Assembly: GCF_035285525.1 (NCBI RefSeq)
Contig: NZ_JAYKGW010000223.1
Location: forward strand, 1 to 31,098
Direction: 5' to 3'
Source of the DNA: Okeania sp.
Lineage (GTDB): Bacteria > Cyanobacteriota > Cyanobacteriia > Cyanobacteriales > Microcoleaceae
DNA length: 31,098 bases
Shown here: positions 9,064 to 27,437 of the stretch, piece by piece
How the letters are laid out: every line of letters starts with the position of its first letter
Numbering within the stretch: the first letter of the stretch is position 1
Translations under genes and position numbers: made by a program
Notes under the pieces: model-generated
Told to the model about the DNA's origin: nothing
Databases searched by the model: none
The model's input: the letters and a program-made list of their open reading frames with translations, nothing else

Positions 9064-9337
9064 TTACAGCAATGCATGAGGATCGTGAGGTACAGTTATT
9101 TGCAGTTCAGCCTTCGTTTGCTGTAACAATCAGGATCTTGAACTGCAAAAATCAATAACAGACTTCCAGTCTTTAACAAATAATGAGGTACTTCACGCAC
9201 TTGTTTCCTTTTATATTAGGACTTACGCAAAGAAACCCCGTTTCTAGGAGAAACGGGGTTTCTGGGTTCAGTTGCAATAGATGTAGGTTGGGTTGAGGGA
9301 CGAAACCCAACAACCATCTTTCTCTCCTCTTCCCTAA

Positions 9338-9448
9338 TAGACATCTCTAGAAAAGAGGGAGTAGAGAGTAGGGAGTAGGGAGTAGGGGGAAAGAATAGAT
9401 GATTTTTGTACGATTATTGATTTAATTTTTTATTTCTGGAGATGTCTA
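9338..9448. mobile_element. MITE-like element with TAGACATCTC terminal inverted repeats
   Basis: Left end tagacatctctagaaa, right end tttctggagatgtcta. A homologous copy in inverted orientation lies at 23964-24061. Solo ends occur near 7680, 9449-9463 and 29131-29145. Confidence 0.7.
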
Positions 9449-9469
9449 ATAGACATCTCCAATAATAAT

Positions 9470-15483: not shown

Positions 15484-15909
15484 TTAAAAAGGAGGATGTT
15501 CTCCTACTGAATAGAGTACCTGACGCAAATTAACCACTCCTTCTCTATTAAGTTTGAGAGCTTCTATTGTAGCGCGTCCTGTGGGAGTTAAGCCAATAAC
15601 TATAGTAAAATTTTCATTCCAAATAAAATGGTCATGCCATACTTGTTGACGAGGATTATATAACCCTACAAAGTTATTATTTATTGGGTCGCGCCATTCT
15701 GTTTTATTATATTTATGATTGTTACAACCTTGACAAGCAAGAGCGAGGTTTTCTAGTGTAGTTTTTCCTCCTTTACTCTGAGGAATAATATGTTCAATCG
15801 AAAAAGATTGCATGGCAAAACGCGCTTGAATAAGGCAATATTCAAAACAATTTTTTGCACGTTCGATAATAATTTTTCTTTGTTGGGTAGTGACTCTATT
15901 TTCAGACAT
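15484..15909 (-). CDS. Small HNH endonuclease
   Basis: HNH core: IEHIIPQSKGGKTTLENLALACQGCNNHK. Upstream Cys pair: CFEYC. 141 aa. The start overlaps the stop of the upstream ORF. Confidence 0.85.
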   Translation of the reverse strand: MSENRVTTQQRKIIIERAKNCFEYCLIQARFAMQSFSIEHIIPQSKGGKTTLENLALACQGCNNHKYNKTEWRDPINNNFVGLYNPRQQVWHDHFIWNENFTIVIGLTPTGRATIEALKLNREGVVNLRQVLYSVGEHPPF

Positions 15910-16303
15910 TTATTTCTGTTTTTCTTCCTAAGTTTTCCATTAAATCCACTAGAGAAAATCCTCGAATATTAGCTAATTCTACTAAATTTTCTAAACGCTT
16001 GGCTTCAATTTTTTCTATTTCCTCGCTTAATGTTAACAGTCGATTATATTCTGTCTCTTTCAGAGTTTCTGACTCTCGTTTAGTAATTAATTGTTGATAA
16101 TCTTTTTGAATTTCTGGAGGAATACCTTGATTAATTTTTGTCAATAGTTCCGCTTCTTTTTGCGGTAGTATTGAGGTACGACGTTTGGCTTGGAGGGCTA
16201 TTATTTGTGAGGCAAAATGCTCAAAATCTGGCAAACTTAATTGTTCGACTGCTTTGAGTAATTCTTCTGAAGATAGTTGTACTTCTATAGAAATTTTTGA
16301 CAT
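15902..16303 (-). CDS. Hypothetical helical protein translationally coupled to the HNH endonuclease gene
   Basis: 133-aa ORF rich in predicted helices and charged residues. Its stop overlaps the HNH ATG by 8 nt (AATGTCTGA). I recognised no catalytic motif. Confidence 0.65.
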   Translation of the reverse strand: MSKISIEVQLSSEELLKAVEQLSLPDFEHFASQIIALQAKRRTSILPQKEAELLTKINQGIPPEIQKDYQQLITKRESETLKETEYNRLLTLSEEIEKIEAKRLENLVELANIRGFSLVDLMENLGRKTEINV

Positions 16304-16607
16304 TTTTGATATCTTGATTTTTATATTGTAAAATAGTTTAGCATACAGTAGGTTGGGCTAAGCGACAGCGAACCCAACAATTTATCTATCTTTATTAGTT
16401 ATCTACCTTTGTTGGGTTTCGGGGTACCTCAACCCAACCAACAAACTTAATTGTTCCACAGCTTTGAGTAATTCTTCTGAAGATAGTTGTACTTCTATGG
16501 AAATTTTTGACATTTTTGATATCTTGATTTTTATATTGTAAATTAGTTTAGCATACAGTAGGTTGGGTTAAGCGAGAGCGAACCCAACCATTTATTTATT
16601 TATGATT
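16232..16607. repeat. 210-bp tandem duplication (1.8 units) of the leader plus first 24 codons of the 133-aa gene
   Basis: 16232-16397 and 16442-16607 are near-identical. They are separated by a gttgggtt...aacccaac hairpin. The upstream copy encodes only MSKISIEVQLSSEELLKAVEQLSL plus 12 unrelated aa before a stop. Confidence 0.9.
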
Positions 16608-19600
16608 AGTTGAAATTTTTACTTATTTCTTCTAAAGGAGGTGTAAAAACTTCTACTTTATATTCATTAATAGTTTCAGTAAAAATAAGTTCTGAACATT
16701 GGGAACGTAAAGATTTCCATAACATTGTTTGTTCATAATGTTCAAATTCTGCCGGAATGTAATCTAAAAGAGTTTTGGAACAAACAACAATTAATCTTTC
16801 TTGAACTCTCGAAAAAGCTACATTTGAGCGATTAAGATTGAGAATAAATTCCACATTTTTACTAATAGCAGACTGGTCGCTTGCTGTAGCAGAAACAATT
16901 ATATTGGGACGTTCGCCACCTTGGAATTTTTCTACAGTATCTATCACATCAACAGCATTTCCATGGTAATCTACTAATTCTGTTTTCAGTAGGGTTCTTT
17001 GGGCGCGATGTGGAGTAATAATTCCGACAGAACTATCAGGAATTTTACCACCGGCATCCAGAATTTTTTTAATTATTTCTACTTCTACTTGATTATTGCG
17101 TATTGACTTACGCTCAGAATGAAGAACAAGATAAAGACCTCTATTTCCTAGCAAAAGTTTTTCCCAAGTTCCATGTATTTCTTTTTCTTCTATATTTTTA
17201 TCTTTTTCTTTGCCTCGTAATTGAATATTATCTAACTTACTATAAAGCCGTGCAATAAGTTCGCGAATAACTGGCGGTAAACGAAAGGTAAAATTCAAAG
17301 CTGAACATAATATTGCTGTGTTAGGAATTTCAATATCTGGGTTTGATTTTAAGTTTTGAATAGCCTGATATGCACTAACATAAGGTTGGTAAGATACTAC
17401 AGGAGGACGGTCTTCATTTTCCCAATCATGGGTAATAATAGGAGTAAGTTGTCGATGGTCTCCAGCTAACATTATTTCACCATCATTTTTGACTAATGTA
17501 GCTAATGCTAGAAAGTGAGGAAATACCATCATACTTGCTTCATCAACAATAAGAATTGTTGTTTGAAAACCTTGAGGATAATCTTTTAAAAATTTCTTTC
17601 TTTGATTCAGTTCATTAACCATCTTTAAAATTGCATTGGTTGTTCCTCCAATTACTAAAACTGCATTTTTACGCATTCGATTAACATCACTGAAACAAGG
17701 TTTAGAAGAAAAAGAATTAATATTTGTATTTTGAAAATCCTCGTTGTTTTTAGGATCGACTCTGCTAACTTGAATTGATGATAAGTTGAAGTTTAAATTA
17801 GTAGCGTGTTGATTCAAAATAGGTAAAAGGCGATCTAGACGTGATAGTAATTCATCTACAGCTTTATGGGTATGGCTAGTAATAAGAACAATATCTCCAG
17901 GATAACTTCGCGCCAAAATTCTTAAAAAAGTAGCGATCGCTGTTGTTTCTGTTTTACCTGTACCTGGAGGACCTTGTAAAAGTTGAATCCTAGTTTTTAA
18001 TCCATTTATTATTGCTTCTATTTGCTTATCATCGAGCTTTTTATTATTTGGTAATGGTAAAGAGTTAAGAAAGTTTTGATATTTTTCTAAATCATTTTCT
18101 GAAGGATAAATTTGTGGTGGAATTTGAGGATTTTCTGGAGCTAACCATCGACAAACATGATTTCCTTGAGTATTCTGTAATTTTTCATCGACTTTTCCAG
18201 CTATAAAATCTGAGGGACTTTCATCAATAGTGGCAGTTAGAAAAATTTGTTCTTGATTTCTATTACTATAAGAATTACTAAATAACTTATATCTATCGGA
18301 CTGGCTAAAAATAGGAGATAGTTCTATCTGTTTAGTATCCCAATTTATTTCATTTACTATACAGGTACTGCCACCACGCAAAAGTTGATTAATTGTTTGA
18401 CCTTGATGTGGATTTTCAGCGCAGGGACTAAGCCTAACAAAAGAATCTTTATCTATTGTACAATTAGCTTGTAAAAGTTCAGAAGTAATACTATATCCAT
18501 CAAGATTAATTTCTGCTGTTAGTCTATTACCATTAGCTACTATATTTCTAACAGGTATTGTTCGACCTGAAGAAATACGATAGATAGGTGGAACTAAATT
18601 ATTTGCAATCCAATCTGTTACTTTAACGTGCTGATCTAAACGGAGAAAATCTATTCCTGCTTGAGCAGCATTATCTACACCTAAATTAAAATCTGGTAAA
18701 TTAGCAATAGTCAAAGATTCTTTTTTTATCTCTGGATTTTTAAATCTAATTCCCTCTTCAACCCACCTAATAGCATGAGTACGAGCGCGAAAATATTCTT
18801 TTAAATAGTTTGGTTTTTGTGCTTGATTATAATTTTGAATAGGTTTTTTTAGTTCGGCTTTAAGGTTTGAGTCATTAGGGTCAGGAAGTTTTCTCCAATA
18901 AGCACGCCAATAAGCTGCACTAAAAGAATTAAAATATCTTAGTCTAACTTCAAAGGGATGTTTACTAATATTGTCAGTATTTGATTTTGAAGTAGCCCAT
19001 TGATTATTACTTTCTATCTCTAAATTAGTTTTAAAGTCAAATATATCTTGAGAAAAAGCTCTATCTAAATCAACAAATTTTCCATTAATTTTTCGTCGCC
19101 AATGATAACGTCTGCCAAACCATTTAAGAGAAGTTACAACTACTAAATCTCTACCAGTCCATCCCAAAGCATAACGACGATCTACTTCATCATAAAGACA
19201 AGAATAAATTAGTTGTTCTAAACTTTCTCGACAACCAAGTAACTCCCGTAAATGACTCAGAAGTTGAGAACTAACACGGGAACAACCTTCTATCAGTTGA
19301 GTCATTTCCTGACGTGACCAAACATAAAAATGAATGGGAGCTTCTTCTGTTTCTGCAACTTCGGCGATAGTATCAACTAATTCTAATAAAAATCCTTGTA
19401 TTAACTCTTTTTCTGAACCATTGTCTTCTTTATATTCTCCCGTCCATGCAGATGTTTTGAATTTAATTATATCCTTACCTTCAAGTTCTTTTTCTTGGTA
19501 AACAGTTTTATTATTGTCATCTTTTCCTACTTCTATATACTCCTTAATTTTCGGGCATGGTTGCCATTTACCCTCTTCGTTTTTCTCAAATTTTGGATCT

Positions 19601-20787
19601 AATTTTCCGTGACTTTTAGTAGCATGAGCTGCTAGAGCGGCTATCCTATTTTCTACATAATCATATTCAACAGAAAGATAGACTCGAATCAGACTTTCTC
19701 CATTAATAATATGTTCGGGAAGTTGACTTTTACCTGAATATTTTGGCAGTGCTTCTACTTCATAAGTATCTGGATAAGAATCTCCATTAGGAAGAGTACG
19801 TTTACGAGTTTTTGCTTTTAACTGAAGAAGCTCTAAATTCTCTGTAAAACTTGTATCTTTTTCAATTTCAGCAGCTTGATTTCCTTCTAAATTAAGTTCA
19901 GATAAATCATCAAGATTGTTGACACCTACCTTATGCAATACCCTGACAATTGATGAATCTCTTCCTAACAATTCTAAACGTTTTTTTCTAGCACTTTCAG
20001 CTAAACAATGAACGCTTAATGTACAGTCGCTACATTTTTGGTCTAGCTGATAATCTAGATCGGATAAGTCCATTTCAACTATCCGCTTTAACACGCCGTC
20101 AGGTGCTAAAAGACGATTAATATCGGCTTTGATTGTATCTAAATTTAAAGCTGAAGATTTGATAATATCCTGACTTTTATTAGTATTTTCATCAATCCGA
20201 ACCACAACACATTCTATATTTTCTGGTTTGAGTTTTATTCCACAGATATTGATTGATTTTTTTTCTATTAACTGATGTACTAATATCTGATATAAACTAA
20301 CCTGTACTTGATGATAAGTCCGGTCTTTTCGAGATGCTTTACCTTCAACTAATCGTAATTTTGGTTCATCATTTTCCCACAGCAAAACTACAAAGTCAAC
20401 TTGTCCAGAAATATTAAACTCTCCCAGACTACCTTCTATAGAAATTTCTCGTCCATAAGCTTTTTGTTTTTCTGGCAAATTTTTCAGCTTTTCAACAAAG
20501 TCATTCCATTCAGTTGGTTGATTTTCTTGTTCAAAGTTATGACTCATTTTAGTTAAGTCAAGAAAGCCATCTTTTTGCAGCAAAATTTCCCATTCATTCT
20601 CTCTTATTCGACCTTCCTCTTCCAAAACTGGATCTAAAGAAGTACCAAAAATTAAGTTATAGAAAGGAATATCTTTTTTAGCAAATTCATAATCGTTATA
20701 TTTTAACTTAAATCGGCGATCGCATGATTGATAACGAATATATTCAGCAATATCGGTAGCTCGAACTGATAGTTTTTTTGTTGACAT
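16606..20787 (-). CDS. Fusion protein: Cas4/RecB-type Fe-S PD-(D/E)xK nuclease + RNase-H-like (TM0106-family-like) module + beta-rich linker + SF1B Upf1/Dna2-like helicase
   Basis: Intact 1393-aa ORF. Nuclease motifs: GQVD131FVV, LVE148GK150, Q160VQVSLY166. Cys cluster: C22 ... C252xxC255x5C261. Helicase motifs: GPPGTGKT (aa 939-946, nt about 17950-17973), IVDEASMM, AGDHRQLTPI, GIITPHRAQ, EKFQGGERPNIIVS, NVAFSRVQERLIVV. Confidence 0.9.
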   Translation of the reverse strand: MSTKKLSVRATDIAEYIRYQSCDRRFKLKYNDYEFAKKDIPFYNLIFGTSLDPVLEEEGRIRENEWEILLQKDGFLDLTKMSHNFEQENQPTEWNDFVEKLKNLPEKQKAYGREISIEGSLGEFNISGQVDFVVLLWENDEPKLRLVEGKASRKDRTYHQVQVSLYQILVHQLIEKKSINICGIKLKPENIECVVVRIDENTNKSQDIIKSSALNLDTIKADINRLLAPDGVLKRIVEMDLSDLDYQLDQKCSDCTLSVHCLAESARKKRLELLGRDSSIVRVLHKVGVNNLDDLSELNLEGNQAAEIEKDTSFTENLELLQLKAKTRKRTLPNGDSYPDTYEVEALPKYSGKSQLPEHIINGESLIRVYLSVEYDYVENRIAALAAHATKSHGKLDPKFEKNEEGKWQPCPKIKEYIEVGKDDNNKTVYQEKELEGKDIIKFKTSAWTGEYKEDNGSEKELIQGFLLELVDTIAEVAETEEAPIHFYVWSRQEMTQLIEGCSRVSSQLLSHLRELLGCRESLEQLIYSCLYDEVDRRYALGWTGRDLVVVTSLKWFGRRYHWRRKINGKFVDLDRAFSQDIFDFKTNLEIESNNQWATSKSNTDNISKHPFEVRLRYFNSFSAAYWRAYWRKLPDPNDSNLKAELKKPIQNYNQAQKPNYLKEYFRARTHAIRWVEEGIRFKNPEIKKESLTIANLPDFNLGVDNAAQAGIDFLRLDQHVKVTDWIANNLVPPIYRISSGRTIPVRNIVANGNRLTAEINLDGYSITSELLQANCTIDKDSFVRLSPCAENPHQGQTINQLLRGGSTCIVNEINWDTKQIELSPIFSQSDRYKLFSNSYSNRNQEQIFLTATIDESPSDFIAGKVDEKLQNTQGNHVCRWLAPENPQIPPQIYPSENDLEKYQNFLNSLPLPNNKKLDDKQIEAIINGLKTRIQLLQGPPGTGKTETTAIATFLRILARSYPGDIVLITSHTHKAVDELLSRLDRLLPILNQHATNLNFNLSSIQVSRVDPKNNEDFQNTNINSFSSKPCFSDVNRMRKNAVLVIGGTTNAILKMVNELNQRKKFLKDYPQGFQTTILIVDEASMMVFPHFLALATLVKNDGEIMLAGDHRQLTPIITHDWENEDRPPVVSYQPYVSAYQAIQNLKSNPDIEIPNTAILCSALNFTFRLPPVIRELIARLYSKLDNIQLRGKEKDKNIEEKEIHGTWEKLLLGNRGLYLVLHSERKSIRNNQVEVEIIKKILDAGGKIPDSSVGIITPHRAQRTLLKTELVDYHGNAVDVIDTVEKFQGGERPNIIVSATASDQSAISKNVEFILNLNRSNVAFSRVQERLIVVCSKTLLDYIPAEFEHYEQTMLWKSLRSQCSELIFTETINEYKVEVFTPPLEEISKNFN

Positions 20788-20900: not shown

Positions 20901-21142
20901 TTAATTTTTCACATGATAAATCACAGAATTGTTTGCATAATTTCTCACAAAACCACGAGTCTGCATTATCTGTTCAAATAATTCCGTAGATAAACTATTT
21001 TCTACACACCAAACTCCCGGTTTATGTAATTTTCCAAACAAAATTAATTCGGCAATACTACCAGTAACAGTATAGCAGTAATAATAGATTTAAGCATATA
21101 TTGGTCTTTGCAAAAATCCTCTGGTATCACTAAAACCTTCAT
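20901..21142 (-). pseudogene. Frameshifted small ORF translationally coupled (ATGA) to the upstream ATPase gene
   Basis: The ATG at 21142-21140 overlaps the ATPase TGA (21141-21139). Frame 1 gives MKVLVIPEDFCKDQYMLKSIITAIL..., stopping after 32 aa. A second frame continues TVTGSIAELILFGKLHKPGVWCVENSLSTELFEQIMQTRGFVRNYANNSVIYHVKN*. The family is unknown. Confidence 0.35.
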
Positions 21143-22428
21143 TCATTCACCTCATTATCACTGATCAACTCCATCACATTTTCTAACCAAGCTGACTCGT
21201 GAAGATGAGCCAAATTTTGTTCATTGAGAATACGCGGTGCATCTGGAATATCTAAAACACGGATAATTTTGGCATCCGCTCGGTTTTCTAAACGATAGAT
21301 TAATGATACTGCTTCTAAAGTGCGATCGCTAACCAATCTCAGTAACTGTGAAGAATGAGTAGTGGCAATAATTTGGATTTTTCCTTGATCAGCTTGACTT
21401 TCAATAAGTTTAAGTAGAAGATGCAAACGGGTGGGGTGAATACCATGATCTAGTTCCTCAAAAAAGTAAAATTGAGCTGACTCCGAACCGAGTCAAGCTG
21501 CAATCATTGCGAGAAAACGTAGAGTGCCATCTGATGCACTATAAGCTGATATTTTTTGTCCGTTTTCTTCCACTAAGGTTAATAAAGTTTTGCGTGTAAA
21601 ATCAGTCGGAAACTCAAAATCTTTAGCATCCATGGGAGTAAGTTCCCGTATCCATTCCAGGAGTGTTTCTTTTTTTTGGGTATTTTGACAAATATCTAAC
21701 AGTACAGATGAAAGATTTTCACCGCGATCGCCCAAAACATTCTGTCCGGGAAAGGAGGGTAAACGCATCACTTCAGGGTTGATATCCAGAAACCTCATAT
21801 TGCTAAATGCTTGTAGGGTAACTTTTAATTTCCCTCTTAAGGAAGTTGCTGGTATATATCTTTCTCCTATAGAAACATCTGTAATTATTTGTGCCATTTG
21901 TGAAAGAATAGGTTGATGAAAAGTTAAAGGAATTAGGGGATTTTGGTAGGCTTGATTATAGACTTTAACAATTAAACTTTTTCTTTCTTTTTAAACCTGT
22001 AATTTAGCTTCAATTAAACTTTCTGATTCACCAGTAAGTGTCAATCTTTCTGTAATAATATTCGGTGGTTGATTATCGCTTCCTAAATTAACCTCAATCT
22101 GATAAATTGCTTCTTTTTCAGTTTTCTTTCCTTGAAAATAATCGGGGATAGAAAATGTCACTTCTAAAGCAAAATTATTACCCTGAAAACCAACTTCTTT
22201 TGTACCTCCCCTAATGCCACGCCACTGCAAAACACCACCTTCTACATATTTTTCCCCCATAATTTCGGCAAGGTTATAGCCACGAGAAATACCGTGTAAA
22301 AATCGTAAGGCATCTCGAATGTTACTTTTTCCAGAAGCGTTAGTGCCGATTAAAATAGTAAATGGCTCTAGAGATAGTTCGGCATTTTTGAAGTTTTTAA
22401 AGTTTTTTAGTCGTAGTTTTTTTAGCAT
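21139..22428 (-). pseudogene. AAA_15/AAA_21-type (ABC/OLD-like) ATPase interrupted by two in-frame stop codons
   Basis: The three tracked ORFs (21991-22428, 21493-21897, 21139-21426) share one frame. Walker A is GTNASGKS. The signature-like motif is SDGTLRFLAMIAA. The Walker B/D-loop is FYFFEELDHGIHP, read across the gap, followed by IIATTHS. The only interruptions are TAA at 21991-21993 and TGA at 21493-21495. Confidence 0.8.
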
Positions 22429-22595
22429 AATATTGATCGGCTTTTCTCCTGTTTTTTTTCCTCTACTCTTTTGACATTATCAAAATTTTTGCTATAATAA
22501 AAATATTCAAACTTTACGGTCTAGTTTAAACAATAATTTGGTAGTTATGAGTATAATTTATCTATACCATATTGGCCAGCAAAATTTTCTTATCA

Positions 22596-22830: not shown

Positions 22831-23151
22831 ATGAAGATTATTTTAGATGAATGTATAGATCGTAGGTTAGCAAGAGAATTTGTTGACTATGAAGTAAAAA
22901 CTGTGTCTCAGATGGGGTGGACAGGAACAAAAAATGGTCAACTTCTTGCTCTTGCAGAAACACAATTTGATGTTTTTATTACAGTTGACCGCAACTTATA
23001 ATTTCAATTGAATTTACCACAGTTTAATATTGCAGTGATTGTTTTACAAGCACCTTCAAATCGTTTAGTAGATTTGAAAATTTTAGTACCAAAAGTTATA
23101 GATGTTCTAGACATAATCTCTAAAAAAGAGGTTAGGGTTATTAGTTTATAG
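22831..23151 (+). pseudogene. DUF5615 (Mut7-C/PIN-like) toxin-like gene with an in-frame TAA
   Basis: It starts 1 nt after the DUF433 stop. The translation is MKIILDECIDRRLAREF...FDVFITVDRNL*FQLNLPQFNIAVIVLQAPSNRL..., with TAA at 22999-23001. The frame is otherwise intact through to TAG at 23149-23151. Confidence 0.75.
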
Positions 23152-23155
23152 AAGT

Positions 23156-23398
23156 TCAAGAATAAACTAATGTAGTAGCGCATCTACCTTTAAAATGTGG
23201 GTAAGTTTGAGTCCCCATAAAAACCTCTCCCCCAACCCTTCTCCTGCAAGGAGAGGGGAGAATCTTTCCCCCTTCCCTTGCAGGGAAGGGGGTTAGGGGG
23301 TTAGGTTTGACCCCTTTGGCAATATTGAAACTAGCAAAATAATCTATAATTTCGTTTAAATCTTTACTAGCAGAGGAAGTAATAATATAACGATTCAT
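23156..23398 (-). pseudogene. parE: ParE/RelE-family toxin gene disrupted by a hairpin-repeat insertion and 3'-truncated
   Basis: The N-terminus MNRYIITSSASKDLNEIIDYFASFNIAKG is ParE-like. It then reads through repeat DNA (VKPNPLTPFPAREGGKILPSPCRRRVGGE). A short FPxxGR-like remnant (TYPHFKGR) follows before the stop. Confidence 0.65.
23215..23325. repeat. Double-hairpin dispersed repeat inserted in parE
   Basis: cctctccc...tctcctgcaaggagaggggag and ccccttcccttgcagggaagggg are palindromes. This is typical cyanobacterial intergenic repeat DNA. Confidence 0.7.
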
Positions 23399-23400
23399 AA

Positions 23401-23661
23401 TTATTTTTGACGATATTGACGTAACTTTTCTTTCAACTGATTAACCACAATTTCTCCATCTATTACTTCACCTCGCTCGATTTCTTCAATAGCTATATCT
23501 ACTTTTTTTTGAGTTTCTTCTACCCATGTTTGATAGATTCTATCCTCTTCTTCTAATAATCTAAAAGCTTTGACAATTACTTCATTGGCATTTTGATATC
23601 TGCCAGTTTTTAGTTTTTCTTGGATGAACTCAGTTTGTTCTGAATTTAAAGTAATATTCAT
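23401..23661 (-). CDS. parD: ParD/CopG-type antitoxin
   Basis: 86 aa: MNITLNSEQTEFIQEKLKTGRYQNANEVIVKAFRLLEE. This is the ParD-family ribbon-helix-helix pattern. It lies 2 nt upstream of the parE remnant. Confidence 0.85.
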   Translation of the reverse strand: MNITLNSEQTEFIQEKLKTGRYQNANEVIVKAFRLLEEEDRIYQTWVEETQKKVDIAIEEIERGEVIDGEIVVNQLKEKLRQYRQK

Positions 23662-23963
23662 TGTTAATTTTGATAATTAAAGTTCCAGTTTTACACAGTA
23701 TTTTTCTAAAAAATATGCTTATATTTTGAGATTTTGGTTTTATTAAGAGATTAGCTCATAAAAATTTAGAATCATTAATCAGTATGCACTATTCCCCGCG
23801 AAAAGTCAGGGAATGTTTTTTTTATTGAGAAGTTTGTACTGTCGATTTAGCAATATCTTTGGTTTGTTTGCGTAAGTTCTAACTAAATCGACTTTAGAAG
23901 GGAATCTCCCCCGCTGCGGTTTCAAAGGGGGGAGAATGATAACTGTTGAACCGGATTCTCTAT

Positions 23964-24061
23964 TAGATATCTCTAAAAACAAAAATTAAAATCAATTCTG
24001 CCATACGAAATTATCAACTATTCTTCCCAGTTAAGTGTTCCCTCTTTTCTGGAGGTGTCTA
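23964..24061. mobile_element. Second copy (inverted) of the TAGACATCTC-TIR MITE-like element
   Basis: Left end tagatatctctaaaaa, right end ttctggaggtgtcta. The interior is the reverse complement of the 9338-9448 interior (gggaagaatagttgataat versus gggaaagaatagatgattt). Confidence 0.7.
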
Positions 24062-24100
24062 TTGCTTATATTGCAAGCAAAAAGCTTGCAATACAACAAT

Positions 24101-25399
24101 CTAATTTTTAACTTCAGAATTATTATTTTTGACTTCTGACTTCTTAGGTCGGCCTTCAGTATCATCCTTTCCTGCTGTCAGACTTTCCAAAGTAGCAGCA
24201 ACATCAATACCAGCAGTTTGCTTCAACTCCTCAAAGAAAGCAGCCATTTTTGTGGCATTGCTCCCACCTTGAGCATTAATCACAGTTACATTATCCACCT
24301 CAATTTCTGGTACTGTAGACACAATAATCTGCAACAACTCTTCCAACTTCTGATACAGAAAAACTTCCCGCGCATTTGCACCAGCAGCTTTCCAAGATTC
24401 TGCCAATTTACGAATCCCCTCAGCTTGTGCTTTTCCTGGTTCCACAATAGCAGCAGCATCACCCTTGGCACGAGCGACCAAACGCTTACATTCGGCTTCC
24501 GCAGGAGCAACTACATCTGCTTGTAACTGTTGTTCCACCTGTTTAATTCGTTCCTGTTGTACTGCAACTTCAGCTTGAGTCCGGGCTACTTGCGATCCAA
24601 TTTCTGCTTCAGCTTCAGCGACTACAGCTTGCCGTTTCGTTTTCGCATCTTTAATCCGCCTTTCGGCATCTGCACGAGCCATAGCAATGTCAGTTTCAAT
24701 CTGTTTAAGAGAAGTATTTTTATAGTTTTCGGCATCCCGCATAACTGATTCTGCCTGAGTTTGAGCTTCAGCAATCCGAGAATCTCGTAATAGTTCTGCT
24801 TGTTGCCTACGACCGATCGAATTAAGATATCCTACGTCATCGGAAATATTTTGAATTTGCAGGGTATCTAATATCAAACCTAATTTTTCCAAGTCGTCTT
24901 CTGCTTCTTCTAGTAAGTTTTTCGCGAATGCAATTTTATCTTCGTTCACTTGTTCCGGTGTCAGAGATGCTAACACACCACGCAAATTTCCTTCTAGAGT
25001 TTCCTGAGCTAACTTTTCAATTTCCTGGCGACTTTTTCCTAGCAAACGTTCAATGGCATTATGAATAGTAGGTTCCTCACCAGCAACTTTGATATTGGCT
25101 ACACTTTCGACAGTCAGAGGAATACCACCTTTAGAATAAGAATTAGTAACCTTGAGTTCAATAATCATATTACTCAAGTCCATGCGAAAAGCTTGTTCTA
25201 AGAGAGGCACGCGAATACTGCTACCACCTTTAACCAGACGATATCCAACTTTTTTGTCAGTATTACCAACCCGGTGACGACCACCAGCAAAAATTAAGAC
25301 TTCACTGGGTTGACAAATGTAATAAAGGTTGCGAATTACAAAAACACCCGCACCAGTTCCGAGGCCGAAAACTCCTAGTAATGCTAATATTATTTCCAT
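24101..25399 (-). CDS. Flotillin-family SPFH/Band 7 protein
   Basis: 432 aa with an N-terminal TM helix. SPFH core: LEGNLRGVLASLTPEQVNEDK...DDVGYLNSIGRRQQAE. A long Ala/Glu/Gln coiled-coil follows. Confidence 0.9.
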   Translation of the reverse strand: MEIILALLGVFGLGTGAGVFVIRNLYYICQPSEVLIFAGGRHRVGNTDKKVGYRLVKGGSSIRVPLLEQAFRMDLSNMIIELKVTNSYSKGGIPLTVESVANIKVAGEEPTIHNAIERLLGKSRQEIEKLAQETLEGNLRGVLASLTPEQVNEDKIAFAKNLLEEAEDDLEKLGLILDTLQIQNISDDVGYLNSIGRRQQAELLRDSRIAEAQTQAESVMRDAENYKNTSLKQIETDIAMARADAERRIKDAKTKRQAVVAEAEAEIGSQVARTQAEVAVQQERIKQVEQQLQADVVAPAEAECKRLVARAKGDAAAIVEPGKAQAEGIRKLAESWKAAGANAREVFLYQKLEELLQIIVSTVPEIEVDNVTVINAQGGSNATKMAAFFEELKQTAGIDVAATLESLTAGKDDTEGRPKKSEVKNNNSEVKN

Positions 25400-25589
25400 G
25401 ATTTTTTTACTCCTGAATTAATTGATAGAATAGTTAATAGGCAGTAGGCAGTAGGCAATATGGATGGAGGATTAAGATAACAAAAGGAATATCTGACACG
25501 GGAGCAAGATGCTCCCACTGCTGTACTTCATAATCTATGATTATGTCAAGCTGTTAATTACCCTCTTGCTCTACCTGATCTCGATCGGG

Positions 25590-25800
25590 ACTTACGCCAA
25601 GGCACTATATAGAGTCTTGGTGCGTTACGCTGCCGCTAACACACCCTACTGCATTGTTTCAGCTAAAATAGTGCATGATTATTTGTCATTGCGAACGATA
25701 GTGTTTGCGTAGCATTCCGGACCGAAAGCAATCTCAGACCAATTTCCTATTGCACCATTTAAGATGAAACAGTCCACTACCAATAGCGTTCATGCCTAAG
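25590..25800. repeat. MITE-like repeat (GGGACTTACGCCAAGG ... GCGTTCATGCCTAAGTTCT) between the two flotillin genes
   Basis: The ends and the internal gtgcgttacgc segment match the 9470-9624 family. A GGGAGCAAGATGCTCCC hairpin lies just upstream at 25501-25517. Confidence 0.65.
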
Positions 25801-25806
25801 TTCTAT

Positions 25807-27192
25807 TTATTTTTCAGCTTCGAGAGATTCAACTTTTTTGCGACCATTACTGCTGAAATTCCCTGTTATATCAACCCCAAGGGTTTGATTAACATTTTTG
25901 AGGAACTGGCGGAAGATTTCGGGATACGCATTGATCAAGCTAGCGATCGATTTACCATCCCCAGTATCAATAACGTTAACATTTTCCAGCTTAACTTGTC
26001 CTGGAACTTTCGCCGACTCCCGTAAAATCATGCTAATTTGCTGTAGATAGAATAACTCAGCAGCATCTTTACCAGTTTCCTGCCAAACTAAGGAAAGCAT
26101 ATCGTTAACTAAAGCTTCAGCATGAGCATTTTCTGATAATGAAGAAGCATTTCCTCTTGCTAACAGTTCTTTGGCTTGCCGTTGCGCATCTGCTGGTAAT
26201 ACTTCATCTGCTTCCAGACGCAATCTTTCTAATTCTGCACGAACTGTTTGCAATAATTGTTCTGCTCTCGCTCTAGCTTCTTTCCCCGCAGCAATAGTTC
26301 GTTCTTCTTCTGAACGCGCTTGCTGTTCCAGTTCAGCTTTGATTTTCCGCAGTTCGTTTTCTTTCTCAACTATTAATGTTGCTGCTTGAGTTTTGGCAAT
26401 TTCTGACTCTCGTTTAGATTCTGCTTCTACTTGTTCTGCTTCTGCTTTCGCATTAGATTCAGCAATTTCAGCATCTCGACGAATCATAGCAATTTGTTTG
26501 CGTCCGATGGAGTTGAGATAGTCTACGTCATCAGAAACACTTTGAATTTTGAGGATATCTAGTTGTAAACCCAGTTTGGCTAAATCACGACTCACATCTT
26601 CAGCAATGCGTTCGGCAAATTGAAGACGATCTTCATTCAGTTGTTCTGGGGTGAGAGTAGCGACAACTCCCCGGAGGTTTCCTTCTAAAGTTTCTCTGGC
26701 CACACGGGTAATTTCTGAGCGATCGCGATCCAGAAATCTTTCTATGGCATTACCTACTACTTTGGGGTCGTTAGAAACTTTAACATTAGCGATCGCTTGA
26801 ATATTTAGGGGAGTACCTCCTTTAGAATAAGCGTTACGAACTTCTACAGGAACTGGCATTGTCCGCAAGTCCATAGTTTTAGTTGTTTCCAGAATCGGAA
26901 TCGGAATTGCTCTACCACCAAAAATTACCCGATAACCAACTGTTTCCCCCTCTTTTGTTCGTCGTTTCCGACCAGATAAAATAAGAATTTCATTGGGTTT
27001 ACATATTTGGATGAAGGTATTGATAAACCAGATGAATATTAATACTCCAAATATGGATAGAGCGATTGGTAAACCAGAAGAAATTTCTGTAGTTAAGTTA
27101 TTAGGTTGATTAGTTTCTAAATCTCTAGAAAGTTGTGCAATTTCTACTGTAGTTATTTCGGTTTTTTCTGGCTCAAAAAATTGACTTTTCAT
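25807..27192 (-). CDS. Flotillin-family SPFH/Band 7 protein (paralogue)
   Basis: 461 aa with a TM helix (PIALSIFGVLIFIWFINTF). SPFH core: LEGNLRGVVATLTPEQLNEDR...DDVDYLNSIGRKQIA. A coiled-coil tail follows. Confidence 0.9.
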   Translation of the reverse strand: MKSQFFEPEKTEITTVEIAQLSRDLETNQPNNLTTEISSGLPIALSIFGVLIFIWFINTFIQICKPNEILILSGRKRRTKEGETVGYRVIFGGRAIPIPILETTKTMDLRTMPVPVEVRNAYSKGGTPLNIQAIANVKVSNDPKVVGNAIERFLDRDRSEITRVARETLEGNLRGVVATLTPEQLNEDRLQFAERIAEDVSRDLAKLGLQLDILKIQSVSDDVDYLNSIGRKQIAMIRRDAEIAESNAKAEAEQVEAESKRESEIAKTQAATLIVEKENELRKIKAELEQQARSEEERTIAAGKEARARAEQLLQTVRAELERLRLEADEVLPADAQRQAKELLARGNASSLSENAHAEALVNDMLSLVWQETGKDAAELFYLQQISMILRESAKVPGQVKLENVNVIDTGDGKSIASLINAYPEIFRQFLKNVNQTLGVDITGNFSSNGRKKVESLEAEK

Positions 27193-27437
27193 TAGCTAAA
27201 TTTCCTGATTACAAAGTGTGAAGTTAATAGAAAACTAGGGAATAGGTATGGAGGGAACAGGGAACAGTTAGGAAAAAAATTTCTAGTCTAAAATTTATCA
27301 AAATAATAGGGTTTCAAACTCCTCATTTATCGGCGAAATGTTTTTGGAGCAGGGCTTAATCCCCCTTGACAAAAACAACTTCTGACTTCTGACTTCGTTA
27401 ATATTAGTCTATGCCTTAACCAATTCTTTCTTAGCAT

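Follow-up and report, generated by a model that had tools for sequence, protein, structure and literature searches.

We have analysed a stretch of 31,098 nucleotides from Okeania sp. (contig NZ_JAYKGW010000223.1, positions 1 to 31,098; hereafter the window), and in particular the gene that lies on its minus strand at 16606..20787. This gene is a single uninterrupted open reading frame (ORF) with an ATG start, coding for 1393 amino acids (aa) and a stop, and it brings together a nuclease, an exonuclease-like domain and a helicase in one chain. An earlier note on this DNA, made from the letters alone, had picked out the gene, and the frame and every residue and motif that it named were found intact and in place. 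The protein is identical to a deposited Okeania sp. protein, there labelled merely 'AAA domain-containing protein'. Our results show that it is built on a Dna2 scaffold into which about 470 residues (aa 271-735) have been inserted, namely a helix-hairpin-helix (HhH)-like segment, an RNase-H-like domain and a region specific to its family.

Domain layout of the nuclease-helicase protein

The layout was deduced from profile searches and from two structural models, an AlphaFold2 model of aa 1-930 built with 53 homologues (pLDDT, from the predicted local distance difference test, 86.6; predicted template modelling score, pTM, 0.86) and an AlphaFold model of aa 690-1393 (pLDDT 84.9), both compared with known structures by Foldseek. 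Taken together, the models show a Dna2-like arrangement with an extra module, as had been claimed from the sequence, and Dna2 (PDB 5ean) is the top structural match for both halves of the protein. The Pfam profile search placed no domain between about aa 270 and 900, and searches of NCBIfam, PADLOC and PDB sequences matched only helicase stretches, all of them far under the family cut-offs.

The first 270 residues (19978..20787, minus strand, as are all the domains of this protein) form an iron-sulfur (Fe-S) PD-(D/E)xK nuclease of the Cas4/Dna2/EXO5 type. Pfam PDDEXK_1 matched aa 18-261 (8e-10), and at the N-terminus of the aa 1-930 model Foldseek returned EXO5 (7lw9), Cas4 SSO0001 (4ic1), Dna2 (5ean) and AddB, which bears out the nuclease proposed in the earlier note. 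The predicted catalytic residues D131, E148, K150, Q162 and Y166 lie in the motifs GQVD131FVV (128-134), LVE148GK150 and Q160VQVSLY166, and the cluster is predicted to be held by C22, C252, C255 and C261; all of these residues are invariant among the 53 core family members. When viral structures were searched, the Cas4-like domain alone was matched, by phage Cas4-like nucleases. The nuclease is followed by a helical segment at aa 271-340 (19768..19977), which consists of the HhH-like stretch LELLGRDSSIVRVLHKVGVNNLDDL and the next helices. The pattern of the stretch itself (aa 271-295) is conserved and the AlphaFold2 model predicts helices there, but the Pfam search gave no HhH match, and the segment is called HhH-like by its pattern only.

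The next domain, at aa 341-560 (19108..19767), had been compared with the RNase-H-fold exonucleases. In the AlphaFold2 model its secondary-structure elements follow the order beta1-3/alpha/beta4/alpha/beta5, consistent with an RNase-H-like (DnaQ/PolB-exonuclease-like) fold, and its best Foldseek match was the exonuclease-bearing DinG 9kqh (probability 0.97, E = 7.5e-3), with low-probability matches to the exonuclease domains of poxvirus family-B polymerases and to Argonaute PIWI. A candidate DEDD-type site is made up of D/E374, D376, E379, H486, E494, Y528 and E534, of which the motifs EYDYVEN (374-380) and HFYVWSRQE (486-494) contain five. The residues D376, H486, E/D494 and E/D534 are invariant in 59 of 59 aligned homologues, down to members from Bathyarchaeia and Chloroflexota at about 23% identity. 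By contrast with this fold-level likeness, a search of 11 diverse middle domains found neither PF13482 nor TIGR03491 at E-values up to 10, a hidden Markov model (HMM) of the middle region found nothing meaningful among PDB sequences, and no Pfam or NCBIfam model covers the domain. Its identification as RNase-H-like is therefore made weakly, at the level of the fold, and its invariant acidic residues likely form a third, DEDD-like catalytic centre. Between this domain and the helicase half lies an alpha/beta and helical region that is specific to the family (aa 561-735; 18583..19107) and shows very high conservation, with the motifs WFGRRYHW, QDIFDFK, RARTHAxRWxEE and DFLRLDQH; neither the profile search nor the middle-region HMM run against PDB found a Pfam or PDB relative for it.

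Residues 906-1393 (16609..18072) are the 1A and 2A domains of a superfamily 1B (SF1B) helicase of the Upf1/Dna2 type with a complete set of motifs. The helicase assignment of the earlier note was confirmed by Pfam (AAA_11 from aa 917, AAA_12 at aa 1163-1338) and by structure: the best match of the aa 690-1393 model was Dna2 5ean, over 702 aligned columns with E = 9e-25, followed by Upf1, IGHMBP2 and Sen1. Walker A (GPPGTGK945T) occupies residues 939-946, DEAS residues 1082-1085 and GDHRQL residues 1109-1114, motifs V and VI are present, and the set includes TVEKFQGGE (1284-1292) and NVAFSR (1322-1327). The stretch just before the helicase had been taken for a beta-rich linker at about aa 700-900. 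It is rich in beta structure; however, since the aa 690-1393 model aligned to Dna2 over the whole 704-residue segment, it is not a linker but the Dna2/Upf1-type beta-barrel with its connecting helices (aa 736-905; 18073..18582), whose strands fall at about aa 743-856 in the model. After helicase motif III there is a loop, PIITHDWENEDRPPVVSYQ (aa 1115-1133; about nt 17389-17445), which is near-invariant across the family, with H1120, W1122, E1125, D1126, R1127, P1128 and P1129 conserved, and is the sole internal low-confidence stretch of the helicase model (pLDDT < 50). Its role may be that of a functional element peculiar to the family, or of a contact between domains.

Family distribution and gene neighbourhoods

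When 1.84 billion representatives were searched exhaustively with aa 1-930 as the query, the family came to 428 clusters at 50% identity. Practically every complete member has a length of 1330-1530 aa, a near-uniformity which indicates that the architecture is fixed. The distinct architecture that had been suggested is thus real as regards the extra module, but it is far from unique to this protein. The family is represented in many cyanobacteria, with 61-76% identity across orders, and at 40-57% identity in Myxococcota, Acidobacteria, Armatimonadota, Kocuria aegyptia, metagenome-assembled genomes of Enterobacterales, one Pseudomonas fulva strain and haloarchaeal megaplasmids, the haloarchaeal plasmid members being at 40-42%. 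A scan of genome collections yielded 8 true relatives amid generic matches to the GPPGTGKT pattern, and metagenomes were then scanned with an alignment of the middle domain. The distribution is patchy, even within genera, and crosses from bacteria to archaea. The median identity of the proteins across phyla is 46%, and no hypervariable specificity region was seen in the alignments. No phage was found to carry the gene: tblastn against 50,697 phage records gave no match, and neither did IMG/VR. A literature search found no named system of the same composition, the nearest being reports on UvrD-Cas4 and 'DNA2-like' proteins. This leaves an annotation gap: about 600 residues of conserved protein are covered by no Pfam or NCBIfam model, and the family escapes the current defence-finder profiles.

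Beyond the family proper, the haloarchaeal plasmids L170, L171 and L173 carry distant paralogues at about 27% identity, some of them annotated 'bifunctional RecB family nuclease/DEAD/DEAH box helicase'. Genes for Piwi-domain proteins (prokaryotic Argonaute) lie by or near such paralogues in 3 of 5 plasmids, two of these three also having a gene pair described as 'RNase-H-like + DEAD/DEAH helicase', and in Salinigranum a Mre11/Rad50-like pair follows.

Gene neighbourhoods were analysed by script in 89 non-redundant loci, a locus being counted as well flanked when at least 1.5 kb was available on both sides. A C5-cytosine DNA methyltransferase lay within 1.1 kb of the gene in 17 of 27 well-flanked non-cyanobacterial loci, and 23 of all 50 non-cyanobacterial loci had an adjacent methylase. 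It could stand on either side of the gene; it was on the same strand in 14 of the 23 adjacent cases, and the gap was between -58 and 118 bp in 12 of those 14. Among 139 nearest-neighbour ORFs, the C5 methylase family PF00145 was counted 22 times, Vsr 6, a SacI-type restriction endonuclease 5, an HhH-GPD glycosylase 3, and a resolvase and an integrase 2 each, while no N6 or N4 methylase family occurred twice. This recurrence of PF00145, and of no other methylase, indicates a link that is specific to C5 methylation and not the generic clutter of defence islands. By clustering, Vsr was found in 11 loci, the SacI-type enzyme in 6 and HhH-GPD in 4, and the orders gene-methylase-Vsr and Vsr-methylase-gene both occur. 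The adjacent methylases score as DrmMII/DruM-like; the 25 full-length ones fall into 10 lineages at 50% identity, and their pairwise identities are uncorrelated with those of the partner effectors (Spearman rho = 0.12, p = 0.12). We conclude that the ancestral and commonest arrangement outside the cyanobacteria is the gene paired with a C5-cytosine methyltransferase, so that the 'single-gene system' of the earlier note does not hold there.

The loci lie in mobile contexts, on integrative elements and plasmids, with integrases, serine recombinases and Rep/excisionase genes nearby, and their defence neighbours include BREX, DUF262 proteins, a giant HNH protein, restriction-modification (R-M) systems and YprA-type (DISARM/Druantia-like) helicases. 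Homologues are thus found in variable contexts, among integrase/recombinase elements, on haloarchaeal plasmids and beside R-M, BREX and YprA genes, and not mainly in housekeeping synteny, as had been anticipated for a defence gene. Nucleotide-metabolism genes flank some homologues, with a dCMP deaminase, a thymidylate-synthase-family gene and a dCTP deaminase at L004 (14308-16682) and ThyA and DHFR at L174 (3311-5296), in a manner reminiscent of pyrimidine-modification modules on mobile elements. Two further loci look like links to DISARM/Druantia/ARMADA-like systems. P0080 (L168 8001-14315), a variant of 2104 aa, has a UvrD helicase joined to the N-terminus of the whole protein; its operon also contains a methylase of the Eco57I type and a YprA-type helicase of 2109 aa, and an EVE-domain gene lies downstream. 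At the Kocuria locus (L009 14205-24067) the order is the gene, a C5 methylase, a 990-aa unknown protein and a 1779-aa YprA-type helicase.

The cyanobacterial members differ in this respect. An adjacent C5 methylase was found in 0 of 29 cyanobacterial loci, 23 of which have at least one usable flank (0/23 against the other clades, Fisher p = 2e-5). The cyanobacterial sequences form one clade nested inside the methylase-linked lineages in a neighbour-joining tree without support values, and, on this tree, the solitary form appears to be derived, with loss of the adjacent methylase. No theme recurs among the neighbours of the cyanobacterial copies; most are housekeeping genes, with a toxin-antitoxin or defence-like gene here and there. 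Where copies are 90-93% identical in nucleotides, they have only the gene and 100-300 bp upstream in common, and homology ends at the stop codon; with homology so limited, the gene behaves as a single-gene cassette. Of the 29 copies, 6 are split or truncated, and in a copy 93% identical to that of the window (L093) codon E272 has become a nonsense codon, GAA to TAA (nt 669-671). These losses weaken the argument that the window gene, as the only large gene of its island still intact, is under ongoing selection. Six cyanobacterial entries (P0054, P0057, P0064, P0066, P0067 and P0116), of 1122-1134 aa and otherwise intact, begin at the equivalent of window aa 257 ('MSVHCLAES'), within the Fe-S motif, and could be a nuclease-less or split-gene sub-lineage.

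Proposed role and alternative explanations

From the computed anatomy, conserved residues, phylogeny and neighbourhoods we infer an enzymatic polarity, a role for 5-methylcytosine and defence itself, and we propose, with a probability of about 0.5, that the protein is a restriction-like DNA-degrading effector, the nuclease half of a defence module. By analogy with Dna2 and with AddAB/RecBCD, a 5' single-stranded end or flap would thread through the Fe-S PD-(D/E)xK nuclease and then enter the SF1B helicase, which would pull the strand 5' to 3' with ATP, and the RNase-H-fold domain, through its DEDD-like acidic site, would trim the opposite 3' strand, such that DNA offering an end, a nick or a gap would be destroyed processively. 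In most lineages the partner C5-cytosine methyltransferase would mark the host DNA and so provide self-protection. Since the methylases are diverse and exchanged and the effector is conserved and without a variable specificity domain, this protection is probably generic to 5-methylcytosine and independent of a matched recognition sequence. The solitary cyanobacterial form would presumably rely for discrimination on the resident methylation of the genome or on access to DNA ends.

If this proposal is correct, the family is an undescribed two-gene restriction-like module that is spread across bacteria and archaea and has three predicted catalytic activities in one Dna2-shaped chain. The interchangeable methylase would then imply that self and non-self are told apart by the 5-methyl mark and not by a matched recognition site. 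The loss of the methylase in one lineage would be a natural experiment, in which paired and solitary forms are directly comparable, and the gene could contribute to the transformation resistance of some cyanobacterial strains.

Several observations weigh against this proposal. About one third of the well-flanked non-cyanobacterial loci have no visible methylase, and there is no methyltransferase within 31 kb of the window copy. In 6 loci a SacI-type restriction endonuclease already partners the methylase, which means that the family protein is not always the only restriction component. Vsr and HhH-GPD neighbours are equally compatible with a role in repair, and the neighbours of the cyanobacterial copies are mostly housekeeping genes. 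The exonuclease assignment is based on weak fold matches, the tree carries no support values, and the PADLOC 2023 models lack the family, apart from partial helicase matches.

The first of the alternatives takes up the repair neighbours. The protein could be a repair enzyme for the liabilities of cytosine-5 methylation, which, once Vsr or a T:G glycosylase has acted at a deaminated 5-methylcytosine, excises the strand that has been nicked, or which removes covalently trapped C5 methyltransferases. Like Vsr, such an enzyme would accompany C5 methylases whatever their specificity, and this would account for a link that is C5-specific and independent of the methylase lineage, as well as for Vsr in 11 loci and HhH-GPD in 4. 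The inferred polarity, 5' to 3' as in Dna2, would be well fitted to loading where Vsr has nicked, and a solitary copy would still be useful in cyanobacterial genomes rich in 5-methylcytosine. However, most C5 R-M systems do without such a protein and most of our loci are without Vsr, while the gene is sporadic, transferred across domains, plasmid-borne and often pseudogenised, a pattern that marks defence cargo and is atypical of repair genes. It also co-occurs with BREX, YprA-type systems and DUF262. We consider this explanation unlikely, although it has to be taken seriously.

A more speculative variant of the restriction proposal is that the protein is a restriction component without sequence specificity of its own, a translocating Dna2-like nuclease that would degrade any DNA on which it can load, with 5-methylcytosine halting it or keeping it out whatever the sequence around the mark. 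On this view methylation would play the part of a 'Chi' that is independent of sequence, and the antidote could be supplied by any C5 methylase. This would explain at once the strict C5 link, the free exchange of methylase lineages and the persistence of solitary copies in heavily methylated cyanobacterial genomes, but in this specific form we regard the idea as a long shot.

Equally doubtful is that the protein is a general enzyme of DNA-end resection or recombination, a bacterial Dna2 or a one-chain analogue of AddAB serving the metabolism of the host or of a mobile element, with an incidental methylase link. The Dna2-like fold with its Fe-S nuclease agrees with such a role, and so do the largely housekeeping neighbours in cyanobacteria and the replication genes found in some contexts (holA and a PolB fragment in Anabaena; ThyA/DHFR/PolB by a distant haloarchaeal paralogue). 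On the other hand, synteny is not conserved past close relatives, presence within genera is patchy, the adjacency is far from random and shows specificity for C5 methylases, and the NCBIfam models for Dna2/IGHMBP2 and RecD were matched partly and far under their cut-offs.

The orders gene-methylase-Vsr and Vsr-methylase-gene mimic known R-M-V operons, with gaps that are tight or overlapping, as would be expected of a classical ATP-dependent restriction endonuclease with sequence specificity; its cognate methyltransferase would be the adjacent one in other phyla, and in Okeania would be encoded at another place in the genome. Yet the effector is highly conserved (median 46% across phyla) and shows no hypervariable specificity region, there are at least 10 methylase lineages whose identities do not follow those of the effector, and a separate SacI-type enzyme is present in 6 loci. 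A sequence-matched R-M pair is disfavoured by this absence of co-variation, and we hold it to be improbable. Least probable of all is a functionless remnant of a decaying island, since the broken adjoining ATPase, the 6 of 29 split cyanobacterial copies and the nonsense codon in the 93%-identical copy are set against a 4.2-kb ORF that is unbroken in Okeania and keeps every invariant catalytic residue, in a clade that retains 61-76% identity across orders.

Known systems and the surrounding island

As in Dna2, an N-terminal four-cysteine Fe-S PD-(D/E)xK nuclease is followed in the family by a beta-barrel and the SF1B 1A and 2A domains. Unlike Dna2, the family has about 470 extra residues between nuclease and barrel, its sequence similarity to Dna2 is confined to the helicase motifs, and it is sporadic, mobile and methylase-linked, whereas Dna2 is a universal replication factor. 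Membership as an orthologous Dna2 was rejected: TIGR00376 gave 89.8 bits, over partial stretches only, against a cut-off of 348.9, and in place of a housekeeping distribution we found a patchy one, with copies borne on plasmids and elements in variable contexts.

Of the published concepts, the nearest is that of the UvrD-Cas4 fusion proteins, which occur in neighbourhoods of Dcm/Vsr and of type III R-M genes and for which an ancillary part in defence has been predicted (Hudaiberdiev et al. 2017, PMC5704561). Both combine a Cas4-like Fe-S nuclease with a superfamily 1 helicase, both are found next to Dcm with or without Vsr (in our case at the level of the family, not of the window), and both also occur alone. 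In the published fusions, however, the motor is an SF1A UvrD placed N-terminal to the nuclease, with neither an RNase-H-like module nor a beta-barrel, whereas in our family it is SF1B (AAA_11/AAA_12) and C-terminal; only the variant P0080 adds UvrD and thus has both motors. To the defence-associated, methylase-linked nuclease-helicase fusions the family adds a likely extra catalytic module and a methylase link that is C5-specific and independent of the methylase lineage.

The parallels that the earlier note had drawn with Nhi and with TM0106 remain analogies, as both memberships fail at the sequence level. Proteins of the TM0106 type (TIGR03491; a Cas4-like nuclease with PF13482, RNase_H_2) have an Fe-S nuclease followed by an RNase-H-fold exonuclease-like domain, to which the nuclease and the putative RNase-H-like domain of our protein bear a resemblance at the level of the fold, but in our family this unit is always fused to a Dna2-type helicase, and the sequences did not match TM0106/PF13482 even at permissive thresholds. 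Nhi joins an HsdR-like PD-(D/E)xK nuclease to a DUF2075/Dda-like SF1B helicase, and both activities are required for its anti-phage immunity (bioRxiv 10.1101/776245). It is likewise a single chain with a PD-(D/E)xK nuclease and an SF1B helicase, but it has neither an Fe-S cluster nor an RNase-H-like module, and PADLOC and Pfam gave no match to Nhi, to DUF2075 or to any other full-length family; the PADLOC search that had been recommended returned partial helicase matches only. Mokosh (MkoA/MkoC) was rejected as well, since only C-terminal stretches of the helicase matched (at best aa 1105-1350 against positions 818-1089 of the MkoA profile) and there is no PLD domain, and for PLuB, DpdJ and RecD2 the matches were again to generic helicase stretches only.

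Systems of the DISARM, Druantia II and BREX types resemble the family in that self DNA is marked by a methyltransferase that can be exchanged, while the helicase or nuclease effector coupled to it is conserved, and two family members lie inside YprA-helicase operons. They differ in that the minimal unit of the family is two genes, that its motor is SF1B and not YprA/SF2, and that it has no conserved DUF1998, PLD or PglZ partner. AddAB and RecBCD share with the proposed activity a helicase-driven, dual-nuclease and processive degradation of DNA ends, and AddB has the same Fe-S nuclease. RecBCD is known for destroying restricted or linear phage DNA. These enzymes, however, are multi-subunit, Chi-regulated and housekeeping, and their second nuclease is a RecB-type domain and not an RNase-H fold. 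In R-M systems that use a C5 methyltransferase the cognate methylase is encoded adjacently; in the family an adjacent methylase is frequent in the non-cyanobacterial loci (17/27 when well flanked) and absent from the cyanobacterial clade (0/23) and from the window. The family differs from such systems in having neither co-variation with the methylase nor a variable recognition domain.

The island around the window gene had been described as one of toxin-antitoxin modules, an HNH pair and an OLD/ABC-like ATPase, and this description largely stands, with an ATPase pseudogene, a PtuB-like HNH gene, a ParD-like gene and a low G+C content. From about 14 to 24 kb the G+C fraction is 0.30-0.33, lower than the 0.38-0.42 of the kinase and SPFH genes nearby; PSRP-3/Ycf65, CcbP and a GAF hybrid kinase are encoded near the ORF and confirm that the DNA is cyanobacterial. 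Directly upstream, on the minus strand at 21139..22428, three ORF fragments cover positions 1-119, 187-299 and 322-405 of one ATPase profile (PDC-M07A/HEC-01A/OLD-type, AAA_15/AAA_21), and because they tile this single profile we regard them as a pseudogene. The ParD-like gene lies further upstream, at 23401-23661. Just downstream of the window gene, at 15484..16303 on the minus strand, a 133-aa ORF and a 141-aa HNH gene overlap; the HNH gene (15484-15909) resembles PtuB of Septu (5.5e-14), but the 133-aa ORF found no family match in profile searches. This pair was rejected as a conserved partner of the nuclease-helicase gene, as a similar pair at L004 has an unrelated 133-aa protein and the HNH motif alone is common. 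The genes on both flanks of the window gene are themselves defence genes in decay. The ATPase pseudogene and the HNH/133-aa pair could be the two halves of a Septu-like ATPase and HNH system, into which the nuclease-helicase cassette may have been inserted, or beside which it may have landed.

Just past the low-G+C stretch, a tandem pair of SPFH/Band-7 (flotillin-like) genes codes for proteins of 432 and 461 aa (24101-27192, minus strand). Finally, related contigs contain, in unrelated positions, sequences 72-88% identical to short segments of 90-215 bp at 22454-22593, 22943-23156, 23960-24063, 9335-9452 and 27294-27396; such recurrence is also seen twice inside the window, and the segments are probably dispersed cyanobacterial repeat elements.

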